Shown here: in pieces, positions 1 through 64,000 of the stretch
Layout: the number at the start of each line of letters is the position of its first letter
How positions within the stretch are numbered: the stretch's first letter is position 1
NCBI GenBank assembly: GCA_965224245.1
Contig: OZ245046.1
Span: 2,464,001 to 2,528,000, forward strand
Source of the DNA: Candidatus Eiseniibacteriota bacterium
GTDB lineage: Bacteria > Eisenbacteria > RBG-16-71-46 > CAZAMP01
Reading direction: 5' to 3'
Length of the DNA: 64,000 nt
Program-made: the position numbers and the translations under genes
The notes under the pieces: generated by a model
What the model was told of the DNA's origin: nothing
What the model saw: only the letters and a program-made list of their open reading frames with translations
Databases searched by the model: none

Positions 1-295
1 GCCGAAGGCGAGCGTGATGGGTGGTGGAACGTCCATCGGCTGCGCGAAGATGCACTCGGATGGATGTCGTCGTCGAGCGTACGCTGCATATATGGCGCAT
101 CGCGGGCGTCGTGTCCACTGTCGATCTCCCGGGAATCGCGCGCGACCATCCGTCGTGATCGGGTCGGGAGCGTGTGCTAGAGTGCCTCGTGCGACGTCCG
201 AGCGTCGTCGGGCCGACACGCCGGCCGCCGGCGCACCGAGCCCACGCGCGCGCGATCATCCCGGATTAAACAGACACTTCCACCGGACGGTGACG

Positions 296-2071
296 ATGCT
301 CGACCGCCCCAGGCCGCCTCGTCCACCGCGGACACGCGGCGCGTGGATCGGCCTCTCGCTCGGCGCCCTCCTGGCGCTGGCAGGGCCGGCGTCACGACCC
401 GCGGCGCTCGCCGAGACCCTCACTCTCACCCCCGAGTGGTCGGTCGACACCGGCGGATGAATCTTCGCCAACCCCGAGGTCTCGGGGGATCGGGTCTACG
501 TCGGATCGTGCAACGGGCGGTTCCAGTGCCGCGACCTCACCGACGGCTCGATCCGGTGGAGCTACGACGTCAGCGCCGACGGCGAGGCCCGGAGCTTCCA
601 CGGGAACATGCTGCTCCAGAAGAACGTGATCCTCGTCGGCACCGACCCCGAGGACGGCTACCTGTACGCGTTCGACCCGCAGACGGGCGAGGTACGCTGG
701 AAATGGTGGGCCGCTCCCGGGATCGGTACCGACCTGGTCGCGGGGCCCGATCTCGTCTACGCGGTGACGCTGGACGACGTGCTCGTGTGCCTCGACCTGG
801 AGACCGGCGCCGAGCAGTGGCGCAGCGTCCCCGAGACCACCGTCAGCTCCATGCTCACGCGCGGATCCACCCCGGCGCTCGAGGACGAGACGATCGTCTT
901 CGCCGGCGTGGCGGGCCGCGTCCAGGCGCTGGACGCGCGGACCGGCGCCGCCGGGTGGTCCACCGAGGTCGGGGGGCCGGTGACCACGTCGGTGGCCCTC
1001 CATCGCTCACGAGCGCTCGTCGGAACCGAGGCCGGCGTGCTCCACGCGCTCGATCGCACCACCGGGACCGTCCTCCGTTCGGTGTCGCTGCCCGGCTCGC
1101 CGCGCGGCGAGATCGTCACGACCGAGGCGGGGCTGGTGGTGCTCGTCGGCGAGGACGGCTGGCGAGCACGGCTGGTCGCGCTGGACGACGATCTGACCGT
1201 CGCGTGGGAGAGTGTCGCCACCGACGGCTCGCTCTGGACGAGCGCCCGCCCGACGCGAGCGGGCCGGTGGATCCTGGTCGGCACGGCCAGCGGCGAGCTG
1301 GCCGCGATCTCGTCCGACACCGGCGAGACCGACTGGACACTCCCGATCGAGCCCATGCGCGACTGGACCGGGGACGGCATCCGGAGCGCCTCCATCGTCG
1401 CCGGCCGCCTCATCGTGGGCACGATCGCCGGGCGACTCACGTCGTATCGACTCCCCCCGGAGATCCTGGCCGGGGCCGGGCCCGTTCGGCGGCCCCGCCC
1501 GCGTCCGGTGGCCATGGCGCCCACGTGAGCCGGCTGACCCGGCGAAGGGTCGCCGCTTCGGGGAAGCGGCCTGGATCACGACTGGACGGTCTCGCTGCGG
1601 TACGTGGATACCGGAACCGATCGGGCTCGCTGGCGTTCCACGATCAACCGGCGCGTGCTGCCGACGCTCTCGCTCGGGATCGAGTTCAACCCGGTCGTCG
1701 GCGAGGTCGGTCCGCTGGTCACGTGGTTCTTCGTCGGTGAGGGGCATGGCACACCCGCCGTCTTCGTCGGCACCAGCTCCGATCGGATCGGAACCGACGA
1801 GGGCGAGCAGAGCTACTACGCGACGGCGACCAAGCGGCTGCCGTGGTGGCCGGTCTCGGCCTACGTGACCGCCAACTACTCCGAGGCGGACGAGTCGTTC
1901 AACGTGCCCTTCGGGGGCACGATCAACCTCACCGAGACGCTGTCGATGCGTCCGATGTACGATGGCGAGCGCACGCATCTGATGGCCACGGCGGCCACCG
2001 AGCGGTTCGCGGTGTCGCTGATCGCAGTCTGGCTGGAGCGGGTCGGCGTCTCGGTCTCCACGGGCTTCTGA
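296..2071 (+). CDS. Predicted exported multi-selenocysteine protein: PQQ/BamB-like beta-propeller + UxxU linker + C-terminal beta-barrel-like domain (591 aa if all three UGAs are read through)
   Basis: ORFs 14..460, 608..1528 and 1604..2071 share one frame and are separated only by TGA at 458, 1526 and 1535. Signal peptide from ATG 296. The propeller repeat continues across TGA458 (WSVDTGG-U-IFANPEVSGDRVYVGSCNG). SECIS-like hairpins follow each TGA. Protein ends in ...VSTGF. Confidence 0.8.
461..490 (+). promoter_or_regulatory. Bacterial SECIS-like hairpin for UGA 458-460
   Basis: Stem CCCCGA (472-477)/TCGGGG (482-487) with apical loop GGTC (478-481) starting 18 nt after the UGA. Same loop sequence and nearly the same spacing as the E. 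coli fdhF SECIS. Confidence 0.8.
1540..1570 (+). promoter_or_regulatory. Two overlapping SECIS-like hairpins for the UxxU codons 1526 and 1535
   Basis: Hairpin A: CGGCGA-AGGG-TCGCCG (1540-1555), loop 18 nt after the first UGA. Hairpin B: GCCGCTTC-GGG-GAAGCGGC (1552-1570), loop 23 nt after the second UGA. Confidence 0.7.
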
Positions 2072-2097
2072 AGGTCTCGACCACGAGGATGGCGTCA

Positions 2098-2769
2098 ATG
2101 CGCAAGCTCGTCCGTCACGCGATCGCGATCGTCGCGGTCGCCGCCTGCACCGCCGTGTTCGCCGATCCCGCCGAGCACCCGGACGAGGCGGTCTGCCGCA
2201 CGTGCGAGATCCGTGGCGGCGGGCACGGTCTCGAGAAGGTCGCCGCACACCGGGAGTACGAGGGCACGTTCTACTACTTCTGTGACCCGGGCTGTGCGGA
2301 CGCGTTCGATGCGTTCCCCGAAGCCTACGCCCACCAGCCCCTCCCGAGGCCGGCCCCCGACGTCACGTTCACCTCGCTCGACGGCTCGTCCGTTCCCCCG
2401 AGCGCGCTTCGCGGGCAGCACGTGCTCGTGGACTTCTGGGCCACGTGGTGCAAGCCCTGCGTGACGAGCATCCCCAAGCTCGTCGAGATCCAGGAAGAGT
2501 TCGGTGAGCGGGGCTTGCGCGTGGTCGGGGTCTCGATCGACGAGATCGAGGCCGATCGCGTCCGTGCGTTCGTCGACGAGAAGAACATGGCGTACACCGT
2601 GGCGCTGGACGGCGGCGACGAGCCGGCCTGGCTGGCCTATCGGGTGGCCGCGATTCCCGCGGCCTTCCTCGTCGATCCCGACGGTCGCATCGTGGCCGAG
2701 TGGAAGGGGGCGGTCGATCCCTCGCGAATCCGGGCCGAGATCGCCGACCGGCTCGGGGGGACGGACTAG
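2098..2769 (+). CDS. Exported YHS-domain + TlpA/ResA-like thioredoxin (redoxin) fusion
   Basis: Signal peptide; CxxC...YEGTFYYFCDPGC...F YHS signature; LVDFWATWCKPC and cis-Pro motif AAIPAAFLVD. Alternative start at 2089. Confidence 0.88.
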   Translation: MRKLVRHAIAIVAVAACTAVFADPAEHPDEAVCRTCEIRGGGHGLEKVAAHREYEGTFYYFCDPGCADAFDAFPEAYAHQPLPRPAPDVTFTSLDGSSVPPSALRGQHVLVDFWATWCKPCVTSIPKLVEIQEEFGERGLRVVGVSIDEIEADRVRAFVDEKNMAYTVALDGGDEPAWLAYRVAAIPAAFLVDPDGRIVAEWKGAVDPSRIRAEIADRLGGTD

Positions 2770-3004
2770 CTCGACCGGGCCCCGGTAGGCCGCCACCGGG
2801 GCGCCCCCCGGCGCTCCCGCGAGGCTCGAGGTCGTCCGGGATCCCCGCAGCGTCCCCAAACCGCTCATCGGTAAGCATTTGCCTCAAAGCTGAGGATCGT
2901 TATATTCTGAACCGACGCCGAGCGGCGATGGGGGTCGTGTGGGCGGTACGGTCCGCACTCCGGGCGACGCGCGTTTGCCGCTGGAGACGCCGCAGGAGAG
3001 CCCG

Positions 3005-3640
3005 ATGTCCGCCGCCGCCGCTGATCTACCTCCATGGATCCACTCGCTGCCGGTTGCGATCTGGGTGTCCGACGAGCACATGCGCCTGTCGTACGTCAAC
3101 GAGGCCGCAGAGCGTCTCTTCGAGATCACCGGCGACGTCGTGGGCTGCCACTGCTTCGAGATCGTGCGCGGCCGCGACGCAAGCGGAGCTCCGTTCTGTC
3201 GCCCCGACTGTCCGGCGGCGGCCGCGATTCGTGACGGGTGCGCGAACGACGGCTTCGATCTCAAGATCGGTGACGGGGTCGGATCCTGGACGCGCGTGTT
3301 CATCGCTCCGGTCGCGGGTCGCTCGTCGCGGCCGATCATTCACTTCGCGGTCCCGATGCAGCGCGAGCACTGCGCCGAGGACTTCGTCGAGCGCGTCGCG
3401 GAGCGGACCCGTGCCGCGTCCCAGGCTCGACTCGACGCGCTCACCGACCGCGAGAAGGAGATCCTGGCACTTCTGGCGCGCGACAAGACGGCACGAGTGA
3501 TCGCCGACGAGCTGGCCATCAGCTATTCCACCGTTCGCAATCACATCCAGCACGTGCTGACGAAGATGGACGCGCACTCGACCCTGGAAGCGGTCGCGTG
3601 CTGGGTGCTCGCGACCGCCGTCGTGTCCGGCGAGGAGTGA
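3005..3640 (+). CDS. PAS-domain LuxR-family transcriptional regulator
   Basis: PAS-like YVNEAAERLF with Cys cluster; C-terminal LTDREKEIL...IADELAISYSTVRNHI HTH; AGGAG RBS. Confidence 0.88.
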   Translation: MSAAAADLPPWIHSLPVAIWVSDEHMRLSYVNEAAERLFEITGDVVGCHCFEIVRGRDASGAPFCRPDCPAAAAIRDGCANDGFDLKIGDGVGSWTRVFIAPVAGRSSRPIIHFAVPMQREHCAEDFVERVAERTRAASQARLDALTDREKEILALLARDKTARVIADELAISYSTVRNHIQHVLTKMDAHSTLEAVACWVLATAVVSGEE

Positions 3641-3769
3641 CGTCCAGCCATCCCGGACGAGAGCGCTACCGTCCGGTCGCGATCACGCGTCCCGCGACCG
3701 GCGATCACGCCACCGGGACCCGCGCCGGCGACGAGATCCTCGACCGATCGCGATCCAGGAGGCCACGCG

Positions 3770-4381
3770 ATGTCGCCGACCGGGACGTTCGAGATCGCCC
3801 CCAGCGGACGGGCGAGGTGTCGCGGGTGCGGCCGTGCAATCGCCAAGGGCGAGATCCGCTTCGGCGAGCGAATGCCCAATCCCTTCGGTGACGGCGAGAT
3901 GACCCTCTGGTTCCATCCACGATGCGCCGCGTACAAGCGCCCCGAGCCGTTCCTGGACGCCCTGTCCTCGGATACGACTCACTCCGGTGAGCTGTCCGGA
4001 CGCGAGTCCCTGATCGACGCCGCGCGGTGCGGCGCCGCGCATCGCCGGCTACCCAGGCTGAGCGGCGCCGAGCGCGCGCCGAGCGGACGCGCTCGCTGCC
4101 GGTCCTGCCGAACGCTCATCGACAAGCAAAGCTGGCGGTTCTCACTGGTGTACTACGAAGAGGGTCGCTTCGAGCCCGCCGGCTTCATCCACGCGGGCTG
4201 CGCACCGGACTACTTCGAGACGACCGTCGTGACGGAGAGCGCGACGCCTCTCGTGGAGGGCGGCGAGCTTCTCGTGGAGCGCGCCGCACACTTCTCGCAG
4301 CTGGACGACGCGGATCGGTTGGCGCTCGCCGAGGCCGTGGCCGGCGGAGGTCCGTCCACGTCCCCGGTGGCGCTCCCGTGA
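3770..4381 (+). CDS. Tandem PARP-type zinc-finger protein
   Basis: Two repeats: APSGRARCRGC...WFHPRC and APSGRARCRSC...FIHAGC (CxxC...HxxC); AGGAGG RBS. Confidence 0.8.
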   Translation: MSPTGTFEIAPSGRARCRGCGRAIAKGEIRFGERMPNPFGDGEMTLWFHPRCAAYKRPEPFLDALSSDTTHSGELSGRESLIDAARCGAAHRRLPRLSGAERAPSGRARCRSCRTLIDKQSWRFSLVYYEEGRFEPAGFIHAGCAPDYFETTVVTESATPLVEGGELLVERAAHFSQLDDADRLALAEAVAGGGPSTSPVALP

Positions 4382-5127
4382 CGGCGCATCGCCGGGGAGC
4401 CGCCGGCGGGGTCGCGGCGGATCTCGTGCACGTCTGGGTCATGCCGGTGGATGCGTGCATCGCGGCGCACGGCGAGCCGGCGCTCGTGGAGCTGCTCGAC
4501 GCCGGCGAGCGAGCCGAGTGCGGCCGGGCTCGACAGGACCGGGTCCGGCGTGAACGCCTCGTGTCCAGAGCGCTCCGCCGCGTCGCCCTGTCCTGGCTCG
4601 CCGATCGTCCGGCGACGAGCTGGACGTTCACGGTCAACGCGTTCGACCGGCCCGAGCTCGTCCCGACCCCTGGCGTGCCCCCCATCCGCTTCAACGTCTC
4701 CCACTCCGGCGGTCTGGTCGCGTGCGCGACCGCGCTGGCGCACGACGTTGGAGTGGACGTCGAGGACGTCACCCGGCGGGTGTTCGACCTGGTCGCCATC
4801 TCCGGCTACCTGGCGCCATCGGAGAACGAGCATGTCGTGGCGCAGCCGGCGGCGACTCGCGCGCGCACGTTCTTTCGCTACTGGACGCTGAAGGAGGCCT
4901 ACGCGAAGGCTCGCGGCATGGGGCTCGCGGTGGGCTTCGACTCGTTCGAGATGGATCTCGGCGGCTCCATACCGTGCCTCAGCACCGGGCCGGAACGTAG
5001 CGCCTGGCGCTTCGAGCAGTGGGACGTGGGCGACTCCCACGTCGTGGCACTGGCGGTCCACGCGGAGGCAAACGAGCCGCTCCGGATCGTGTTGACCCGG
5101 CTGGACGATCTGAATCCGATTCCCTGA
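4378..5127 (+). CDS. Sfp-type 4'-phosphopantetheinyl transferase
   Basis: FNVSHS, VGVDVE and FFRYWTLKEAYAKARG motifs; GTGA overlap with the upstream stop. Confidence 0.92.
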   Translation: MTAHRRGAAGGVAADLVHVWVMPVDACIAAHGEPALVELLDAGERAECGRARQDRVRRERLVSRALRRVALSWLADRPATSWTFTVNAFDRPELVPTPGVPPIRFNVSHSGGLVACATALAHDVGVDVEDVTRRVFDLVAISGYLAPSENEHVVAQPAATRARTFFRYWTLKEAYAKARGMGLAVGFDSFEMDLGGSIPCLSTGPERSAWRFEQWDVGDSHVVALAVHAEANEPLRIVLTRLDDLNPIP

Positions 5128-6867: not shown

Positions 6868-8466
6868 TCACTCCATCGCGGGAAGGCGCTCGTGGAACGG
6901 ATCCCGGAGCGTGCCGCGTCGGGCTCCCCGGGCGCCGGTCTCGTCGTCGAGAACGCGGACCGTCCACTCGTACAGCTGATCCGCCTCGTCGCGCGTGTTG
7001 CCGACGCAGGTCACGCCGACCTTTCCGAACTGCGAGAGCGCCCCGATCATGTGGAACAGCACGCCGGTCTGCGTCACCGGCCGGAAGCTGAGACCGTGCT
7101 GGGTCAGGATCTCGAGGAAGTCCTCGGGCAGAAGCCCGCGATAGGACGGCGAGGTCAGCGCGTCGGTCGAGAAGTAGAACTTCGGCCGGCCGTCCGGCGC
7201 GTGGAAGACACCGCTGTCGGCGTCCAGCGATCCGCAGGTCAGGAACTCCAGCGCCTGGAACGGATGCGTCGTTCCCCCCATCCGGAGGTTGATCTCGATC
7301 GCCGCGATCCGCCACGGCTCGCCCGGCTCGCGCCAGGCCAGGAAGTCCACCGCGACGCGACTGACGACCCCCTTGGCCGCCAGCGCGTCCGCGATCTTCC
7401 GGGCCTCGGCCTGGATCGCAACCCGGTAGTCGTCCGACGCGGGGAACCGGCAGCCGACGTACGCCTGCTTGTTCGGTCCGCCGAGCACCTGATCGTGAGA
7501 CGAGATGACCGCGTGCGTCCCGTCGGGATGGATGCGCATCTGGACGCTCGGTGATCGTACCTCGCTCGCCTCGATGAACTCCTCCACCACGCCGCCCATC
7601 TCGCTCAGCTTGCGGAAGAAGCTCCCGGGCGTCTCCTCCTCGGCGTTGAACACGAGGTGGTCGAGCGCGGCGTCGATCGCCCGGACACGCGCGGCCCGCT
7701 CGGTCGACGAGGGCGACGGGAACGTGAACATCGCGTTCCCCTCGCCCGAAAAGCTCTCGTCCAGCTTCACGACCGCCCGCTTCGAGGCCGGGCGCGCCTC
7801 GGCGAGGTCGGCCAGCGCCTCGGCGAACTCCCGTCTGGTGTGAAGCCCGTGTGAGCCGTGGGGATGGGGCACGCCGGCATCGGCGAACAGGTTCCGTCCC
7901 CCGCTCTTCGTCCCCAGCGCGCGCAGGTCGGGATCGAGCCCGTTGAGCGGAATGTCGAGCGCCAGCGCCAGACGTCGCTCCAGCTCGGTGGAGTTGAAGC
8001 ACGTCAGGTACGCCTGTCGCGGGTTGCCGATCCAGTGCTTGATTCGCTCGATCGCCCTCGGGCGCTCGAGGATCTTCTCGGTGAGCGCGCGGGAGCTGCT
8101 GTCCATCATCGACAGAAAGCCCAGCCGTTTCGACGCGTGGCTCGATGGCACGCCGACCAGGAGATGCAGGTAGTAGTCGATGATGTCCGGGTGGATCGGC
8201 TGGCTGGATAGATACAGAACGCGCGAGGACGGATGCCGTAGCCGCATCAGCGCGAAGAGCAGTCGCTCCTCGTAGCTGGGTACGCCGGAGATCTTCGCCA
8301 GCTCTTCCTGGTCGAAGCTCAGCGACGGCACGACCACCGAGGTATGTTCGAGTGGACGGGCGCCCTGGATCCTGTTCCAGAGCGGTGGGAGCCGCTTCTG
8401 GAGCTCCAGGAACGCCGAGCGCTCCGTCTCGGAGGCAGCGCCCCGATGAGCGGGCATGCTGGTCAT
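6868..8466 (-). CDS. PGM1/BesA-like ATP-grasp peptide ligase
   Basis: VVVPSLS...YEERLLF N-terminal region; ATP-grasp motifs VVKLDESFSGEGN, VEEFI, SPSVQ, IEINLRMGGTTHP. Confidence 0.85.
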   Translation of the reverse strand: MTSMPAHRGAASETERSAFLELQKRLPPLWNRIQGARPLEHTSVVVPSLSFDQEELAKISGVPSYEERLLFALMRLRHPSSRVLYLSSQPIHPDIIDYYLHLLVGVPSSHASKRLGFLSMMDSSSRALTEKILERPRAIERIKHWIGNPRQAYLTCFNSTELERRLALALDIPLNGLDPDLRALGTKSGGRNLFADAGVPHPHGSHGLHTRREFAEALADLAEARPASKRAVVKLDESFSGEGNAMFTFPSPSSTERAARVRAIDAALDHLVFNAEEETPGSFFRKLSEMGGVVEEFIEASEVRSPSVQMRIHPDGTHAVISSHDQVLGGPNKQAYVGCRFPASDDYRVAIQAEARKIADALAAKGVVSRVAVDFLAWREPGEPWRIAAIEINLRMGGTTHPFQALEFLTCGSLDADSGVFHAPDGRPKFYFSTDALTSPSYRGLLPEDFLEILTQHGLSFRPVTQTGVLFHMIGALSQFGKVGVTCVGNTRDEADQLYEWTVRVLDDETGARGARRGTLRDPFHERLPAME

Positions 8467-8537
8467 GCGCGGCAGTATCACCAGGGGTCCCGGGATTGTC
8501 ACGACCGAAACGGCGCCGGCGCCCCCGAGTCCGGGCG

Positions 8538-9686
8538 CTACTCGCCGAACCAGCGCGACAGCCGCTCGGACTCGAACCGCCGCTTCGCCTCGGCGTGCTC
8601 GGCGGAGACCGACCCGAGCGCGATCTCGGGCTCGGGCTGCGCGAAGAAGTCTCCCTCGACCCGCGTCGCCGTCGAGCGGCCCATCTCGATGAAGCAGAAG
8701 CCCCGGCCGTCGAAAGACCCGGGCATCGCCCGGCCGAGACGGTCGGCGGCGATGGCGGCCGCCACCCGCCGACCCTGGAGCTCGGCGAAGAGCCCGGCCT
8801 TCGGAAGCGGGAGTCCGTTCGCGAGCTCGATCCGCGTGACGTCCCCGATCGCGAAGACGCGCTCGTGCTCGGTCTCGAGCGTCGCGGGTCGCACCGCGAT
8901 CCACCCTCCCGGTCCGGTGAGCCCCGACTCGCTGACCACGGTGGGGACCCGGTGCGGGGGCACCGCCATGATCACGTCGGCGTCCAGCGATGCGCCGTCC
9001 GCGTAGCGAACCCGGCCGGGCTCGACGGCGTCGACCTTCCGCCCCACCTCGAACCGGATGCCCCGCTCGGCGAGCCGTTCGCCGAGCCAGCTCGACCCCT
9101 CGGCGCCGGCGTTCGGGAGCAGCATCGGCTGGAGGGTCGTGACGTGAATCTCCGAGCGGTCACGGAGACCCCGATCCCGGAGGTGCTCGTCGAGGAGCAT
9201 CGCGCACTCGTACGGCGCCGGCGGACACTTGTACGGCGCACCGGCCACGACGATCGCGACTCGACCGCCGTCGAACGTCGCGAGCGCCTCGGCACAGGCC
9301 GGGATCGCATCGGCATCGTAGAGATTGTGTCCGTGCTCGACGAGCCCTGGCACCAGATCGGCGCGCGCGACCGCACCGAGGGCGACGACCAGGTAGTCGC
9401 CGTCCAGCATCTCCGCGTCGGTCCGGATCCGGCGAGCGACCGGGTCGATCGTCTGGACATCGCCGCGCACCACCCGGATCCCCCGCCCGGCCAGCGTCGT
9501 GCGCGAGCGCCGCCCCTCCTCGAGCGTGCCCAGGCCCACGAGTGCCCAGAGCTTTCGGAGGCCGATCATGAACGCGTCGCGGCGATCCACGAGCACGACG
9601 TCGTGATCGTCGCCCAGGAGGCTCCGGAGCTCGGTCGCCACCGTCAGGCCGCCGAATCCACCGCCCAGTATCAACGTGCGTGACAT
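8538..9686 (-). CDS. FAD-dependent oxidoreductase, sulfide:quinone oxidoreductase-like
   Basis: GGGFGG Rossmann motif; YKCPPAPYE; FAIGD...LPKAG; distal GFCFIE cysteine. Confidence 0.88.
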   Translation of the reverse strand: MSRTLILGGGFGGLTVATELRSLLGDDHDVVLVDRRDAFMIGLRKLWALVGLGTLEEGRRSRTTLAGRGIRVVRGDVQTIDPVARRIRTDAEMLDGDYLVVALGAVARADLVPGLVEHGHNLYDADAIPACAEALATFDGGRVAIVVAGAPYKCPPAPYECAMLLDEHLRDRGLRDRSEIHVTTLQPMLLPNAGAEGSSWLGERLAERGIRFEVGRKVDAVEPGRVRYADGASLDADVIMAVPPHRVPTVVSESGLTGPGGWIAVRPATLETEHERVFAIGDVTRIELANGLPLPKAGLFAELQGRRVAAAIAADRLGRAMPGSFDGRGFCFIEMGRSTATRVEGDFFAQPEPEIALGSVSAEHAEAKRRFESERLSRWFGE

Positions 9687-9843
9687 GCTGTCTCCTCCCC
9701 CGAGCGAGGTCGTCGTCGCTGCGCCGAGGTCGACCCGCCGTCGCGGTGCGGATGATACCCCCGTTGACGCCGGATGACATCGCCGCCTATCGTCGCGATC
9801 GATGCCGGCGAGCAGTGGGCCCCTCACCGGTGGAGACGGCTGC

Positions 9844-10353
9844 ATGAACCACCGCGACGACGACACGATCGCCCTCCCGGGCACGGGCGGGTGGGCCGTC
9901 CGGCCGACACGCGAGCCGGACCGCGAGCCGTTCGGCCGTCTGCTCTCGTCGGTCGGACTCCCCGAGAGCGGCTTCACCGACCAGTTCGAGCACTTCGTCG
10001 TGGCCGAGCGCGACGGCCACATCGTCGGCGGGGCGGGCGTCGAACGGTACGGCCGCGATGGGCTCCTGCGCTCGGTGGTCGTCGATGCATCCCAGCAACG
10101 GAGCGGGCTCGGGTCACGTCTGGTCGCCGAGTGCGTGACGCGAGCCGAGAGCGACGGGCTGGGCGCGCTCTACCTGCTGACGGAGACCGCACCCGAGTTC
10201 TTCGCCGCCCTCGGCTTCGTCCGGATCGATCGCGCGTCCGTGCCCGAGGCCATCGCGCGATCGAGCGAGTTTGCCAGCGTCTGCCCGGATTCCGCGGTCG
10301 CCATGATGCTCCCGCTGGTCACCGGCTCGACCGCACCCGATCGCGCCCCGTGA
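9844..10353 (+). CDS. GNAT acetyltransferase, arsenic-resistance ArsN2-like
   Basis: GLLRSVVV...QRSGLG, LYLLTETA.EFF and SSEFASVCPDSAVAM motifs. Confidence 0.85.
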   Translation: MNHRDDDTIALPGTGGWAVRPTREPDREPFGRLLSSVGLPESGFTDQFEHFVVAERDGHIVGGAGVERYGRDGLLRSVVVDASQQRSGLGSRLVAECVTRAESDGLGALYLLTETAPEFFAALGFVRIDRASVPEAIARSSEFASVCPDSAVAMMLPLVTGSTAPDRAP

Positions 10354-12095: not shown

Positions 12096-12674
12096 TCATC
12101 GCGCCGACGACCCCGACGGCGCATGGTCGGTGTTGCGAGTCGCCTCCGGATCGTCCGGGCTCGATGCAGGGGCCGGCATCTCCGGATCGGGACCCGGCTC
12201 GGCGAGCAGCGCGGCGAGCCGGGCCTCGAAGGCCTCGACGTCCTGCGGTCGGAACCCCTCGTGGCGGATTCGAAACGCACCGGTCCGGTCGAAGACGAAG
12301 GCCGTGGGCACCACCTCGAGCCCGAACGCCTTCGCCAGGTCACCCCTGGGATCGCGCAGGACCGGCAGCGTCACCTCGAGAGCCTCGATGAAGCGGTCGG
12401 CGGCCTCGGCGCGGCGGTCCAGGTTCACCGTGACCACGCGGAGTCCGTCGTCGGCACGCTCGGCGGCCAGCGTCTGCATCCATGGAAAGGACGAGCGGCA
12501 CGGCACACACCAGGATGCCCAGAAGTCGACGTAGACCACCTGCCCCGCGTACGGGGCCGGATCGTCGACCAGCGCGAGCACGGCGTCGAGAGAGGGCGCC
12601 GGCTCGTCGGCGGATGCGATGGAGGCTCCCATGGCGAGAGCGCACAGGACGGCGGCGGTGAGACGCGGGTGCAC
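12096..12674 (-). CDS. Exported TlpA-family thiol:disulfide oxidoreductase
   Basis: Signal peptide after AAAGGAG RBS and GTG start; VYVDFWASWCVPC; VVPTAFVFD. Confidence 0.9.
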   Translation of the reverse strand: MHPRLTAAVLCALAMGASIASADEPAPSLDAVLALVDDPAPYAGQVVYVDFWASWCVPCRSSFPWMQTLAAERADDGLRVVTVNLDRRAEAADRFIEALEVTLPVLRDPRGDLAKAFGLEVVPTAFVFDRTGAFRIRHEGFRPQDVEAFEARLAALLAEPGPDPEMPAPASSPDDPEATRNTDHAPSGSSAR

Positions 12675-12869
12675 GTGGGCTCCTTTCGCTCGGTGGACGA
12701 CACGGTCGCGAAACCGAAGGCGCGGCGTCACACGCGCGCGCGGCGGCATCGACGCCGCGGGGGCGCGTGCGAGTCGCCGTCACCGACCTGTTGCACACGA
12801 TCCCCCGAGGCGGGGTTCCCGCCGATCGCGGCGTCCTCGCGCTCGGACGCCGACCCCGTGGCGGGCGCC

Positions 12870-14300
12870 CTACCGCACGACGACGATCCGATGCACGGCC
12901 TGCAACAACCCGTTTCGCAGCCCGACGTGATAGACCCCGGGCGCAACCCGGCGTCCCAGGCGATCGGTGCCGTCCCAGAGCACGTCGCCGGCGGCGGTGG
13001 CGATCGGCGAGGCGATCCGCCGGCCCGACGCGTCGACGACGACGGCATCGGCGCCCACCAGCGCATCGCCGACGATGAGATGGACCGCGCCCCGCGTCGG
13101 GTTCGGCGTCAGCGACCGCAGCAGCACCGGGGAGGCCGGCGTCTCGGCGACCGAGATCAGCGGGTCGCCCTCGGCGACGTACACGTTCCAGCTCCCGCTC
13201 GAGTCGTCGCACCACGCAACCGCCACCTCGCCCCCGGAGTTCGTGGTCACCGACGGCTCGCGCACGTCGCGTCCGATCCCCAGCTCCTGATCGAACGTCC
13301 AGGTGCCCGAGAGATTCCAGGCGACGATCAGACGCTCGTCGACCATCGACAGCGACTCGTCCCAGGACTCGTGTCGCCACGCGAGAACCGGCCGTCCGAC
13401 CTGGGTCAGGTGCAGCCACAGCTCCTGCGGCCACTCGAACAGAGTTCCCGTGTGTCCGGTGCCGATCGCGTCGGCGTCGCCGAACGCGCCACCGGTCCCC
13501 GTCGCGACGCTCACCTGGTTGCACGGACACGTGGGCTGCTGGCCGTGCGCGGCCAGCGCCATGGTCCACGTGTTCGGGTCGACGGCGAGATCGAAGCGGA
13601 TACCGGCGCCCTCCATCACCGGCGATGCCGGCTGCCACGTGGTGCCGTCGAACTGGCGTCCCTGCACGCCGGGGAACGCCGCCCCCGTATCGAGCCAGGT
13701 CACCAGCAGTCGATCCTCGGCGTCGACCGGGCTCAGCTCGACGGAGAGTTCACCGATCGGATCGACCGCGATCGGTCCGGCCAGGATCAGCGGCGCGGAC
13801 CACCCCTCGGTGACGAGCTCGGAGAAGAGCACGTGGAAGACGCCGCTTCCCTCGTCCAGCTCGGCCCAGGCCACGTGGGGCCCCGAGGCCTTCGCGGGAG
13901 ACGGATCGATCGGCGTGCCGAGCCCGGCGCTCCCGACCACGTCGGCGTCGTGCCACGTCCCGCTCTTCCAGCTCCGGAAACGAACCTGATCGGCGTCGTC
14001 TGACCAGACGACGTAGATCTCGTTTCACCTGAGACAGGTGTAGTGGTCGAAGTCGTGCCCGACGCCCACGGTCTCGATTGGACCCCATCCCCCCTCGCTC
14101 TGGTCCTGGTGGAGGATCTCGTCGCCTTCCTGCCAGAGCAGGTGCCGGACGTCGAACGCGTCGGTCGTGAGGATGGGAGCCGTCGACGGGATCGGCGTCG
14201 TGGTGTGCTGGGTCTCGATCCACCCGGCCGCCACCGGCGACGAGACCGTCGCCAGGAGCGTGACGACCGCGGCGGCGCCGACGGGGCGTGGCGCGGGCAT
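12870..14300 (-). CDS. Predicted secreted selenoprotein (CxxU at 89-92) with propeller-like repeats and FlgD-like C-terminal domain (476 aa)
   Basis: ORFs 14025..14300 and 12870..13940 are in the same frame, joined by a single TGA: HYTCLR-U-NEIYVVWSDD. Signal peptide with GAGGAGG RBS; SECIS hairpin; C-terminal PNP...DASGRRI...WDGTDRLGRRVAPGVY. Confidence 0.85.
13994..14013 (-). promoter_or_regulatory. Bacterial SECIS-like hairpin for UGA at 14027-14025
   Basis: Minus strand CGTCGTCT-GGTC-AGACGACG: perfect 8-bp stem starting 12 nt after the UGA, GGUC loop starting at +20. Confidence 0.85.
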
Positions 14301-14560
14301 GGGGTCCTCCTCGGATAGTTGAGCATGCGAGTCGCGGGTCCCGGCCGGGGCCGCGCGAGGAGACCCGACGAGTGTACACCCCCCGCGCGATCGGGTCCGC
14401 CTCGCTCTCGACTACCCGCGTTCGCATCGGCGGGGCGCGCCCCCGCCCGCGACACGGCGGCCGGTGGTCTGCGATAATCACCCCCGTGCATCCACGAGAC
14501 CGCGTCGACGTCCCGGCGGCTCGCCGTCGCCGGCCCTCCCTCGAGCCCGGAGGCATCACG

Positions 14561-16186
14561 ATGATCCGCTCGACCCCGTACCGCGCCGGCGCCGCGCTGG
14601 CCCTGGCCCTCTTCGCAGCAACGGCCCTCGCCGACGACGTGAGGACGCATCTCGAGACCCACGACGGGGGCACGCGCGCGGTCGAGCTCGTGTCACCGGG
14701 CGGCGGCGGTGGCGGGGCCGACACGGGCACCGTCGCTGCGCGCGGGGGGATCGGCGTCGAGTGGCAGCGCACGCTGACCGATGCCGTGTACACGACGTGC
14801 GCGATCGTCGGCAGCCCGGTCACCGACGTGGCCGCGGGTACCGAGCTCAACCCCCCGCGTCAGGCCGAGCTCGTCCCGTCGGTGGGAGACGGCACGCCGA
14901 CCTGGTTCCATCCGGGAACCTCGTTCCGCGTATCCGCCTCCCGCGCCGGTGACGTGATCGCCGGCGTCGACTACGAGTCCGCGACCCAGACCGTCAGCGT
15001 GTACCGCTGGGCGCCGGACTCCAGCACGCCGCTCTGGACCGACACGCTCACGGGCGTGACGCCCGGCTCGTATCGCGCGATCGCGACGTCGGCCGACGGG
15101 TCGACCGTCGCCGTGCTCGTCTCGGTGCAGGCCGGGGGACCGTTCGCCCGGTGTCGCCTGTACGACGCGGCCACCGGCGCGCTGATCGGAGAGCACGACG
15201 GCCCGGCGGGGTTCGGACGCAACGTCTCCATCGGAGCCGACGGTCGATTCGTCGCGTTCATCGGGCTGGCCACCGCGTACGTCGTGGACCGGGACCTCGA
15301 CGCCATCCGCTGGAGCGGCAGCATGGGCGCGACCAACGATCCGATCGCGATCTCCACCGACGGCACGTACCTGGCCTTCGGGTGGACGAGCCTTCAGATG
15401 CGCGCGTGGAACGGCACCGACTACGCCCCCGCGTGGAGCATCGCCGGCGGCAGCTACCAGGTGAAGAGCGTCACGTTCTCGTCGGACAGTGGCACGTTCG
15501 CGGCCGGGTGGTATCGCTCCGACTACCTGCAGAATCGGATTCACCTGTTCGATCCGTCGAGCAGCACCCCGCTGTGGACGCACCTCGACACGCCGGGAAG
15601 CGGCGCGTACCAGGACATCCCCGCCGATCTCGCCCTCACGGCCGGCGGCGAGTATCTGGCCGTCGGATGCTGGGGGGACGCCGCCCACACGAACGACGAG
15701 ATCCGCCTCTACGGCCACGGCTCGCCCGACGCGCTCGGGTCGGTCGGATCGCCGGGCTCGATCTTCGACGTGGACGTGGCGCTGGACGGCGACGGCGTCG
15801 TCGTCACGGCATGCGGCAAGCACGTGCATGCGAACGAGACCGGCCGGGGCGGTGACCTCTTCTCGATCACGTTCACCGAGCCGGTGGCCGTCGGTGACGC
15901 ACCGGGACGACCGCTCGGGCTCGCGATCGACGTGGCCAACCCGCTCCGGGCCGGGGGACGCATCGTGGTGAGCACCGAGCGTGCGACCGACGTCGAGCTG
16001 ACCGTCTACTCGGCGACCGGCCGGCGTGTCCGGGCGCTGGGGTCGGGCATGTTCGACGCGGGACGCCACGAGGTCACATGGGACGGTCGCGACGACGCCG
16101 GGCAGGACGTGGCCGCGGGTGTGTACCTCGTCGAGGGACGGAGCCGAGACGGGAGCGTCACCGCGCGCACGCTCCTCTTGCGTTGA
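14561..16186 (+). CDS. Secreted WD40-like beta-propeller protein with FlgD-like C-terminal domain
   Basis: Signal peptide, repeated ISADG-type blades, YSATGRRVRAL...WDGRDDAGQDVAAGVY tail; GGAGG RBS. Confidence 0.85.
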   Translation: MIRSTPYRAGAALALALFAATALADDVRTHLETHDGGTRAVELVSPGGGGGGADTGTVAARGGIGVEWQRTLTDAVYTTCAIVGSPVTDVAAGTELNPPRQAELVPSVGDGTPTWFHPGTSFRVSASRAGDVIAGVDYESATQTVSVYRWAPDSSTPLWTDTLTGVTPGSYRAIATSADGSTVAVLVSVQAGGPFARCRLYDAATGALIGEHDGPAGFGRNVSIGADGRFVAFIGLATAYVVDRDLDAIRWSGSMGATNDPIAISTDGTYLAFGWTSLQMRAWNGTDYAPAWSIAGGSYQVKSVTFSSDSGTFAAGWYRSDYLQNRIHLFDPSSSTPLWTHLDTPGSGAYQDIPADLALTAGGEYLAVGCWGDAAHTNDEIRLYGHGSPDALGSVGSPGSIFDVDVALDGDGVVVTACGKHVHANETGRGGDLFSITFTEPVAVGDAPGRPLGLAIDVANPLRAGGRIVVSTERATDVELTVYSATGRRVRALGSGMFDAGRHEVTWDGRDDAGQDVAAGVYLVEGRSRDGSVTARTLLLR

Positions 16187-63159: not shown

Positions 63160-64000
63160 CTACTCGACGATGCGCGGCGTCACGAAGATGATCAGCTCCC
63201 GCTTCGACTCCGTCGTCGAGGTCGACCGGAAGACGCCACCCACGATGGGCAGGCTGCCCAGCACGGGCACGCGGCGCTCGGTCTCGGTCTCGTTCTGGCG
63301 GATCATGCCACCGATCGCGACCGTCTCGCCGTCGCGCACCATCACCCGCGTGTCCGCCTCGGACGTGTTGATGATGATCCCCGACGCATCGGAGGCCTGG
63401 CTCGCCAGGTCGGACACCTGCGGATGCAGATCGAGCGTGATCGACGATCCCTGGTTGATGTACGGCGTGACGCGCAGCTCGATCCCGATCTTCTTCAGCT
63501 CGGTGATCGCGTTGCCGGCCTCGTCCTGCACCACCAGCGGGATCTCCTGACCCACCAGGATGCGAGCCTCGCGGTTGTTGACCGTCGAGATGCGCGGGTT
63601 CGAGATGATGTTGGCCTTGTTGGTCTGCTCGAGCGCCTGGAGCGTCAGGTTCAGGTCCACCCAGTCCTGGATGACCCCGAAGTTGATCGTGCCGACGCTG
63701 CGCGCGATGCCCGCGTCGACCGACGCGTTCGCGCTGGCCGACAGGGACGTCGAGTGCAGGTTCTCCGCACCCCACTGGATCCCCAGCTCGCGAGCGGCGC
63801 CCGCATCCATGTCGACGAGCTCGGCCACGATCTCGACCTGCGGCGTCCGGCTGTCCAGCTTTCGCACGAGACCGTCCACGGCCGGGAGCACGCTCGGGAT
63901 GTCGGTCACGATGATCGTGTTCGTGCGCTCATCGACCTCGAGCTTGCCGCGCGGGCTGAGCATCCCGGTCACCGACGCCACCAGCTCGGACGCGGTGGCG
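63160..64000 (-). CDS. pilQ: Type IV pilus secretin PilQ-like, C-terminal part (5' end outside window)
   Basis: VDERTNTIIV, QVEIVA, ISNPRISTVNN.EA.I.VG, GETVAIGG, VPVLGSLP and ELIIFVTPRIV motifs. Confidence 0.88.
   Translation of the reverse strand, partial: ATASELVASVTGMLSPRGKLEVDERTNTIIVTDIPSVLPAVDGLVRKLDSRTPQVEIVAELVDMDAGAARELGIQWGAENLHSTSLSASANASVDAGIARSVGTINFGVIQDWVDLNLTLQALEQTNKANIISNPRISTVNNREARILVGQEIPLVVQDEAGNAITELKKIGIELRVTPYINQGSSITLDLHPQVSDLASQASDASGIIINTSEADTRVMVRDGETVAIGGMIRQNETETERRVPVLGSLPIVGGVFRSTSTTESKRELIIFVTPRIVE

Follow-up and report, generated by a model that had tools for sequence, protein, structure and literature searches.

The window analysed here is a stretch of 64,000 nucleotides (nt) from a Candidatus Eiseniibacteriota bacterium (contig OZ245046.1, positions 2,464,001 to 2,528,000). 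On its minus strand lie two open reading frames (ORFs), one of 91 residues (14300..14025, stop included) and one of 356 residues with a GTG start (13940..12870). When 14300..12870 is translated with TGA read as selenocysteine (Sec, U), the two fall into one frame of 476 residues in which codon 92 is the single TGA and no other stop occurs. The first-pass annotation, made from the letters alone, had joined the two ORFs through one TGA, and this continuous frame bears it out. The residues around codon 92 read H-Y-T-C-L-R-U-N-E-I and thus include a CxxU motif, the codon is followed by a hairpin with a GGUC loop, and the next gene on the same strand encodes a thiol:disulfide oxidoreductase of the TlpA/ResA type (Table 1). 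We consider it likely that 14300..12870 is a genuine selenoprotein gene whose UGA at codon 92 is read as Sec by way of a SelB-type hairpin, and the family that it represents is probably a new one with a fold other than that of thioredoxin.

The coding character of the frame continues across the TGA. GC content at the three codon positions is 0.68/0.52/0.92 on its 5' side and 0.71/0.52/0.90 on its 3' side, and in a six-frame scan no TGA of the window other than this one (14027-14025) was flanked on each side by 40 or more open codons with a third-position GC content (GC3) above 0.8. Homologs conserve the stretch of 29 codons from the TGA to GTG 13940, which separate annotation would leave outside either ORF. 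A global reassignment of TGA was considered and ruled out: of the window's 33 ORFs with Pfam support, 24 end in TGA, nine in TAG and none in TAA, so the meaning of TGA is not reassigned in this DNA. The proposed selenoprotein gene itself ends in TAG. That 14300..12870 is one gene, with an in-frame UGA inside a continuous and conserved coding frame, is well supported.

Homologs place cysteine where the window protein has its UGA. A word-indexed search returned the window's own 356-aa ORF and three other proteins, and an exhaustive search of 1.84 billion representatives returned 630 proteins at E ≤ 0.001, eight of them at E ≤ 1e-30; the 91-aa N-terminal ORF, used as a query, matched only itself. 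Six close homologs are full-length (470-488 aa, with 30-46% identity), and their alignment with the window protein runs from the signal peptide through the join to the C terminus. The first-pass annotation had named CxxC at the aligned position as something to look for, and in five of the six (P0003, P0006, P0007, P0010 and P0011) the Sec column does hold a Cys within CxxC, in the variants TCLMC, TCPVC, ICPAC, ACLSC and HCSVC. C89, the first cysteine of the motif, is present in all nine close sequences that cover the position and in three of four distant ones. Two shorter proteins, P0052 (90 aa) and P0059 (92 aa), are N-terminal pieces 38-40% identical to the N terminus of the window protein; they end in ...T-C-W-N and ...T-C-W-T, the same endpoint as the window's 91-aa ORF (...T-C-L-R). 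Judged from these protein sequences, three divergent chains that halt two residues past the same Cys are what a conserved Sec TGA would be expected to look like in standard gene calls.

The hairpin downstream of the UGA was also described in the first-pass annotation, and we recover it at the same place: at +12 to +31, CGUCGUCU-GGUC-AGACGACG forms a perfect 8-bp stem closed by a 4-nt loop, below which lie two further helices (GAUC/GAUC and AAACGA/UCGUUU). The spacing from UGA to loop is 19 nt. The upper hairpin alone has a folding energy of -10.8 kcal/mol, and the 50-nt element reaches -20.1 kcal/mol (z-score -2.94), with one of 200 shuffled sequences equally stable. In the selenocysteine insertion sequence (SECIS) of Escherichia coli fdhF, a GGUC apical tetraloop lies about 20 nt after the UGA, and the exposed G and U of the loop contact SelB. 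The window element shares this tetraloop and its distance from the UGA, whereas its stem sequence is unrelated and the bulged U of the fdhF type is not evident in the perfect 8-bp stem. The published consensus for bacterial SECIS elements (bSECIS), as given in a 2026 review (PMC13188914), comprises a loop of 3-9 nt, an upper stem of 4-16 bp, a G in the first two loop positions, a distance of 16-37 nt from UGA to loop and a minimum free energy of at most -7.5 kcal/mol, and our element lies within these published bounds on every count (GGUC, 8 bp, 19 nt, -10.8 kcal/mol).

GGUC hairpins with a perfect stem of at least 5 bp are scarce in the window, with only three on both strands together. For two of them, a TGA that breaks a coding-like frame stands 20 and 22 nt upstream (at 458 on the plus strand and at 14027 on the minus strand); they share the loop and differ in the stem. 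By chance, as estimated from 200 first-order (Markov-1) random sequences, a window would hold 0.01 GGUC hairpins that have a stem of at least 6 bp and follow a TGA by 20-23 nt; two are seen. The third GGUC hairpin (about 63712-63727, minus strand, 6-bp stem) sits inside a secretin gene and has no TGA 14-33 nt upstream. Codon choice in the selenoprotein candidate is a further point in favour: four of the 16 codons after the UGA have A or T as their third base, a share that is 9% over the remainder of the gene (P = 0.056), and the sole TCA serine codon of the gene supplies the loop-closing base.

Table 1. Positions, in window coordinates, of the proposed selenoprotein gene, its parts and the neighbouring genes discussed in the text.
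Feature	Position	Strand	Details
Proposed selenoprotein gene	12870..14300	minus	ATG 14300 to TAG 12872-12870; 476 residues; proposed Sec at codon 92
In-frame UGA, proposed Sec codon	14025..14027	minus	codon 92; motif C89-L-R-U92
Shine-Dalgarno sequence GAGGAGG	14306..14312	minus	5 nt upstream of ATG
SECIS-like element	13978..14024	minus	upper hairpin 13994-14013; GGUC loop 14005-14002
Signal-peptide part	14226..14300	minus	about residues 1-25; basic N terminus, then hydrophobic stretch to ...SPVAA/GW (slash, apparent end of the signal peptide); judged by eye
Beta-propeller domain (predicted)	13167..14222	minus	residues 27-378; seven four-stranded blades, read from the DSSP string
T-C-P-C motif	13521..13532	minus	residues 257-260, within P-T-C-P-C-N
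C-terminal FlgD-Ig-like/T9SS-type domain	12873..13121	minus	residues 394-476
Terminator-like hairpin	12720..12737	minus	within the 195-nt spacer
TlpA/ResA-like thiol:disulfide oxidoreductase	12096..12674	minus	WCVPC; likely start GTG 12674 behind AAAGGAG
BamB/PQQ-like beta-propeller gene with TGA	296..1528	plus	TGA 458-460; hairpin 472-487
178-aa ORF	1538-2071	plus	between the BamB-like and YHS-TlpA genes; unrelated to both
YHS + Redoxin/TlpA-like fusion	2089-2769	plus	WCKPC; exported; YHS 31.8 bits, cutoff 30.3

The protein encoded by the joined frame is predicted to be a propeller. An AlphaFold2 model built on an alignment of 30 sequences has a mean predicted local distance difference test (pLDDT) score of 90.5 and a predicted template modelling score of 0.77, and it is all-beta apart from the signal-peptide helix, which spans residues 8-18 at low pLDDT; the signal-peptide pattern is common to the homologs. 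Read from the strand list, the propeller is closed by an N-terminal strand, and it is followed in the model by a disordered linker (381-391) and a beta-sandwich (394-474). C89 ends strand 82-89, and residues 90-93, including U92, make the turn to strand 94-100 at pLDDT 96-97. Because the motif lies in this turn, the model places CxxU on a tight beta-hairpin between the inner strands of blade 2 and not on a thioredoxin-type helix or in a thioredoxin fold, and the candidate has no thioredoxin-type match in Pfam or NCBIfam. The second cysteine motif, T-C-P-C, was likewise noted on first reading and stands where it was seen, and its two cysteines, C258 and C260, are invariant across the family. 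In our reading of the strand order, CxxU occupies the A-B turn of blade 2 and CPC the B-C loop of blade 5. The two motifs would then sit on opposite faces, and a shared site with C89, U92, C258 and C260 as its four ligands, an idea that we considered, stays conjectural.

Comparisons of structure and profile agree with this predicted architecture. Foldseek against the PDB ranked the seven-bladed Photorhabdus lectins PHL and PLL first (TM-score by target 0.66), with bacterial sialidases, BT3686-type glycoside hydrolases, PorZ (rank 28) and galactose oxidase at lower ranks, and the S-x-x-x-G-x-W turns of the sequence, read by eye, are Asp-box-like. A profile of the family, searched against proteins of solved structure, matched FlgD Ig domains (E 2e-9) and the C-terminal domains of PorU and PorZ (E 1.5e-7), and its match to a pseudaminidase from Pseudomonas was weak (E 2e-4); the window protein itself matched the C-terminal end of PorZ in NCBIfam (E 8e-4). 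Among the 30 aligned family members, Pfam recognises FlgD_ig in 23, Por_Secre_tail in nine and BNR_4 in four, the window protein not being one of those four, and no Pfam or NCBIfam family covers the propeller. Look-alikes of homolog P0006 in the protein Atlas belong to generic FlgD_ig, Por_Secre_tail and BNR clusters. The propeller-like, non-thioredoxin fold and the tail of FlgD or type IX secretion system (T9SS) type that the first-pass annotation had proposed are therefore both retained, the tail being weak in the window protein and recognised in most of its relatives. No T9SS machinery genes were found among the 40 window ORFs scanned.

Several observations weigh against reading the UGA as Sec, or against parts of the picture built on it. 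None of selA, selB, selD and the tRNA-Sec gene lies within the 64-kb window, and one TGC-to-TGA change in a Cys-form gene would give an identical picture of the frame. The loose bSECIS model is unspecific, in that a conforming hairpin of at most -7.5 kcal/mol follows five of the 24 genuine TGA terminators; a GGUC loop follows none of the 24, and it is this loop, not the loose model, that discriminates in the GC-rich DNA of the window. A 66-nt piece around the hairpin has a z-score of only -1.54, with 16 of 200 shuffled sequences equally stable, and no Rfam SECIS match appeared either in the window at gathering thresholds or in a permissive scan of 13900-14100, which gave one chance-level snoRNA match only. 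The site is non-essential in the wider family: P0008 carries Asp there, and the residue is D, A, G or P in the four full-length relatives that are more distant. The endpoints of P0052 and P0059 are read from protein sequence. The window protein's own FlgD_ig match (E 0.0037, 17.7 bits) is below the Pfam cutoff of 27. Finally, the selenoprotein gene and the TlpA-like gene stand 195 nt apart, with a terminator-like hairpin in the spacer, so co-transcription of the two is uncertain.

Some of these points would suit a pseudogene, in which a TGC-to-TGA nonsense change in a Cys-form gene leaves a 91-residue fragment and the hairpin arises incidentally from the codons that encode Y-V-V-W-S-D-D-A. With Cys aligned in five of the six close full-length homologs, one base change would be enough; loose SECIS-like hairpins do follow real stops, and the absence of sel genes from the window is what this explanation would lead one to see. 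We nevertheless regard it as unlikely, given that two other divergent homologs, P0052 and P0059, stop at the same codon, that the 384 codons downstream carry no second lesion and hold their GC3 at 0.90, that the same GGUC loop and spacing recur after a second frame-interrupting TGA where 0.01 such cases were expected, and that the stem is built from rare A/T-ending codons. A sequencing or assembly error would likewise take only one wrong base, in a TGC or TGT codon. That two unrelated database entries (again P0052 and P0059) break off at this codon too, and that the second TGA gene of the window shares the SECIS-type hairpin, make such an error the hardest of the alternatives to credit, and its probability is minimal.

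The two remaining alternatives accept the DNA as intact and differ in how it is translated. In one, the UGA is read through without selenium, suppressed by a near-cognate tRNA for Trp or Cys or passed at low level with help from the hairpin. A continuous, conserved frame is compatible with this, and the Sec machinery is only presumed; but the site pairs with Cys inside CxxC, the classical Sec/Cys signature, the loop and spacing of the hairpin match the SelB-type consensus and TGA is the main terminator of the window's ORFs, and so read-through of this kind seems quite improbable. In the other, the locus holds two separate genes, one for a 91-aa exported peptide and one for a 356-aa cytoplasmic protein starting at GTG 13940, and both ORFs do exist as separate database entries for the source genome (P0012 and P0002). 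Against it, full-length homologs cover both parts in one chain, the stretch of 29 codons between TGA and GTG is conserved, and the 356-aa protein would start partway through the second blade and have no signal peptide; we hold a pair of independent genes to be very improbable indeed.

Reading the gene as encoding a selenoprotein, we envision that the mRNA hairpin downstream of the UGA acts as a bacterial SECIS and recruits SelB with Sec-tRNA(Sec). The product would carry a signal peptide, a seven-bladed BNR/lectin-like propeller and an FlgD-Ig/T9SS-type domain, and it would presumably be exported, with the C-terminal domain probably serving for sorting or surface attachment. Outside the cytoplasm, C89 and U92 could form a reversible selenylsulfide or a soft-metal-binding pair, and the exported WCVPC TlpA-like protein encoded next door would be an obvious candidate to keep them reduced. 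What the analysis shows is a continuous frame, a hairpin, homologs with Cys opposite the Sec, a fold and an order of genes; Sec insertion, export, the redox or metal role and the link to TlpA go beyond this as inferences.

The neighbouring gene is of the TlpA/ResA kind. The longest ORF starts at ATG 12749, upstream of the likely start, and its product has Redoxin and AhpC-TSA domains (E 1e-16), a WCVPC motif and an N terminus that resembles a signal peptide by eye, in keeping with the exported WCVPC TlpA that the first-pass annotation had placed there. Against NCBIfam, it matches ResA, DsbE and TlpA, all below the curated cutoffs (ResA 69.9 against 170). With TlpA/ResA/DsbE reductases it shares the Redoxin domain, WCxxC and the signal-peptide-like N terminus, and it is a Cys form, unlike the UGC-type TlpA selenoprotein. 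When both TlpA-like proteins of the window were compared by phmmer with all six-frame ORFs, these two were the only TlpA-like ORFs found, each placed downstream of one of the two genes with a TGA and a GGUC hairpin and on its strand. This placement of the two thioredoxin-type genes is suggestive as gene order only. The protein at 12096..12674 had no phmmer match among the ORFs of five loci that carry distant relatives of the selenoprotein candidate.

The second of the two TGA/GGUC genes encodes a BamB/PQQ-like beta-propeller. Read-through of its TGA adds a signal peptide and the first strand, and its hairpin has a 6-bp stem and a GGUC loop and starts at the same distance after the TGA as in the 14027 gene. 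None of eight distant homologs has Cys at the TGA site, where the residue is S, P, A or G, and no close homolog of the 296..1528 gene was found. The TlpA-like gene here, a fusion of a YHS domain to a Redoxin/TlpA-like domain, stands two genes downstream, beyond an ORF of 178 aa that neither Pfam nor NCBIfam recognises and whose product ends in an aromatic residue, as outer-membrane barrels do.

It was on the repetition of an exported selenoprotein followed by a TlpA, twice within 14 kb, that the first-pass annotation had rested its proposal of a dedicated extracytoplasmic selenium-redox system. The order and strand of the genes hold at both loci; the exact pattern does not, because the 178-aa ORF intervenes at the 296..1528 locus, where the eight homologs also offer no Cys. 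The core of the original reading is thus well supported, namely one gene, UGA as Sec, CxxU, an exported propeller with an FlgD/T9SS-type tail and an adjacent TlpA, while the dedicated redox system goes unsupported beyond gene order, with the spacer and terminator-like hairpin lying between the genes at the main locus. A more ambitious version would make the protein a surface or secreted selenoenzyme built on a propeller, part of an unrecognised extracytoplasmic selenium module in which exported T9SS-type proteins bear a CxxU hairpin, as a selenylsulfide or metal-binding site, and dedicated TlpA-like reductases from adjacent genes hold it in the reduced state; the window would represent it by two units, the 14027-TGA gene with its TlpA and the BamB/PQQ-like TGA gene with its YHS-TlpA fusion. 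We regard this module as a tentative and rather doubtful proposal.

Known selenoproteins offer partial parallels. In PMC13188914, most characterised prokaryotic selenoproteins are described as thioredoxin-like in fold. The window protein shares CxxU, Cys-containing homologs and a bSECIS-type hairpin after the UGA with the SelW-like, AhpD-like and GrdA selenoproteins, but it is predicted to be a beta-propeller with the motif on a beta-hairpin turn, neither thioredoxin-like nor AhpD-like, and it differs further in having a signal peptide and a C-terminal domain of T9SS type. Not all envelope selenoproteins have a thioredoxin fold; the same review lists, for example, a TonB-dependent receptor with FCYXU and a barrel of the MtrB/PioB type. 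These have in common with our candidate a Sec in an exported, all-beta envelope protein, and in the TonB-dependent type also CxxU; they are membrane barrels unrelated in sequence to the window protein, which would be a soluble propeller that carries a sorting domain. The closest architectural relatives are T9SS proteins that combine a propeller with a C-terminal domain, such as PorZ (5m11) and PorU (6za2), which share the C-terminal domain by profile and fold, and BNR/sialidase-like propellers, which share the fold and have the BNR_4 link to relatives of the window protein noted above. Selenocysteine is reported in none of these in the literature searched, and the window protein's own matches to them lie below curated cutoffs.

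New selenoprotein families are reported regularly. The 119 selenoprotein families in Table 1 of PMC13188914 include no propeller, BNR, FlgD or T9SS family, and the words propeller, FlgD and T9SS are absent from the main texts of PMC13188914, the deep-Sep paper and the BSepDB paper. Full-text literature searches, covering main texts, returned no report of a propeller, BNR, FlgD or T9SS selenoprotein.

If the candidate is what we take it to be, it would define a new selenoprotein family whose fold and location are unlike those of most known ones, a secreted or surface-exposed propeller with a T9SS-type tail. Annotated in the usual way, such a gene comes out as two ORFs, as it does here and, it seems, in no fewer than two further organisms, and the protein sets of today would therefore miss the family. 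Its pairing with exported TlpA-like reductases also offers a testable idea of how a selenol could be maintained in the oxidising cell envelope. Because the GGUC loop is fdhF-like, expression and read-through in E. coli may be feasible.

Beyond the protein sets, a profile search of a genome collection retrieved five distant relatives (23-33% identity), in metagenome-assembled genomes (MAGs) of Gemmatimonas and Fibrobacteraceae, and no close homolog; tRNA-Sec was absent from these five loci. In the Gemmatimonas MAG, the distant relative (1796-4858, minus strand) is convergent to an open frame at 62-1675 (plus strand) that carries selB, followed by ispG; the selB match is to TIGR00475 at 336.6 bits (cutoff 242). 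This adjacency means only that relatives occur in a Sec-decoding genome, and it says nothing about the genome from which the window comes.

Other genes of the window were also noted. Upstream of the selenoprotein candidate and divergent from it, 14552-16186 (plus strand) encodes an exported protein whose tail is clearly FlgD_ig (E 5.5e-11) and which resembles the candidate in the C-terminal domain only (28% identity over 100 residues). Further along the minus strand, the gene at 8538-10022, in which an in-frame TGA was not seen, is presumably a non-Sec relative, and the product of 6871-8904 (minus strand) is a large protein of ATP-grasp type that weakly matches the model of the BesA propargylglycine-glutamate ligase (146 bits, cutoff 750).

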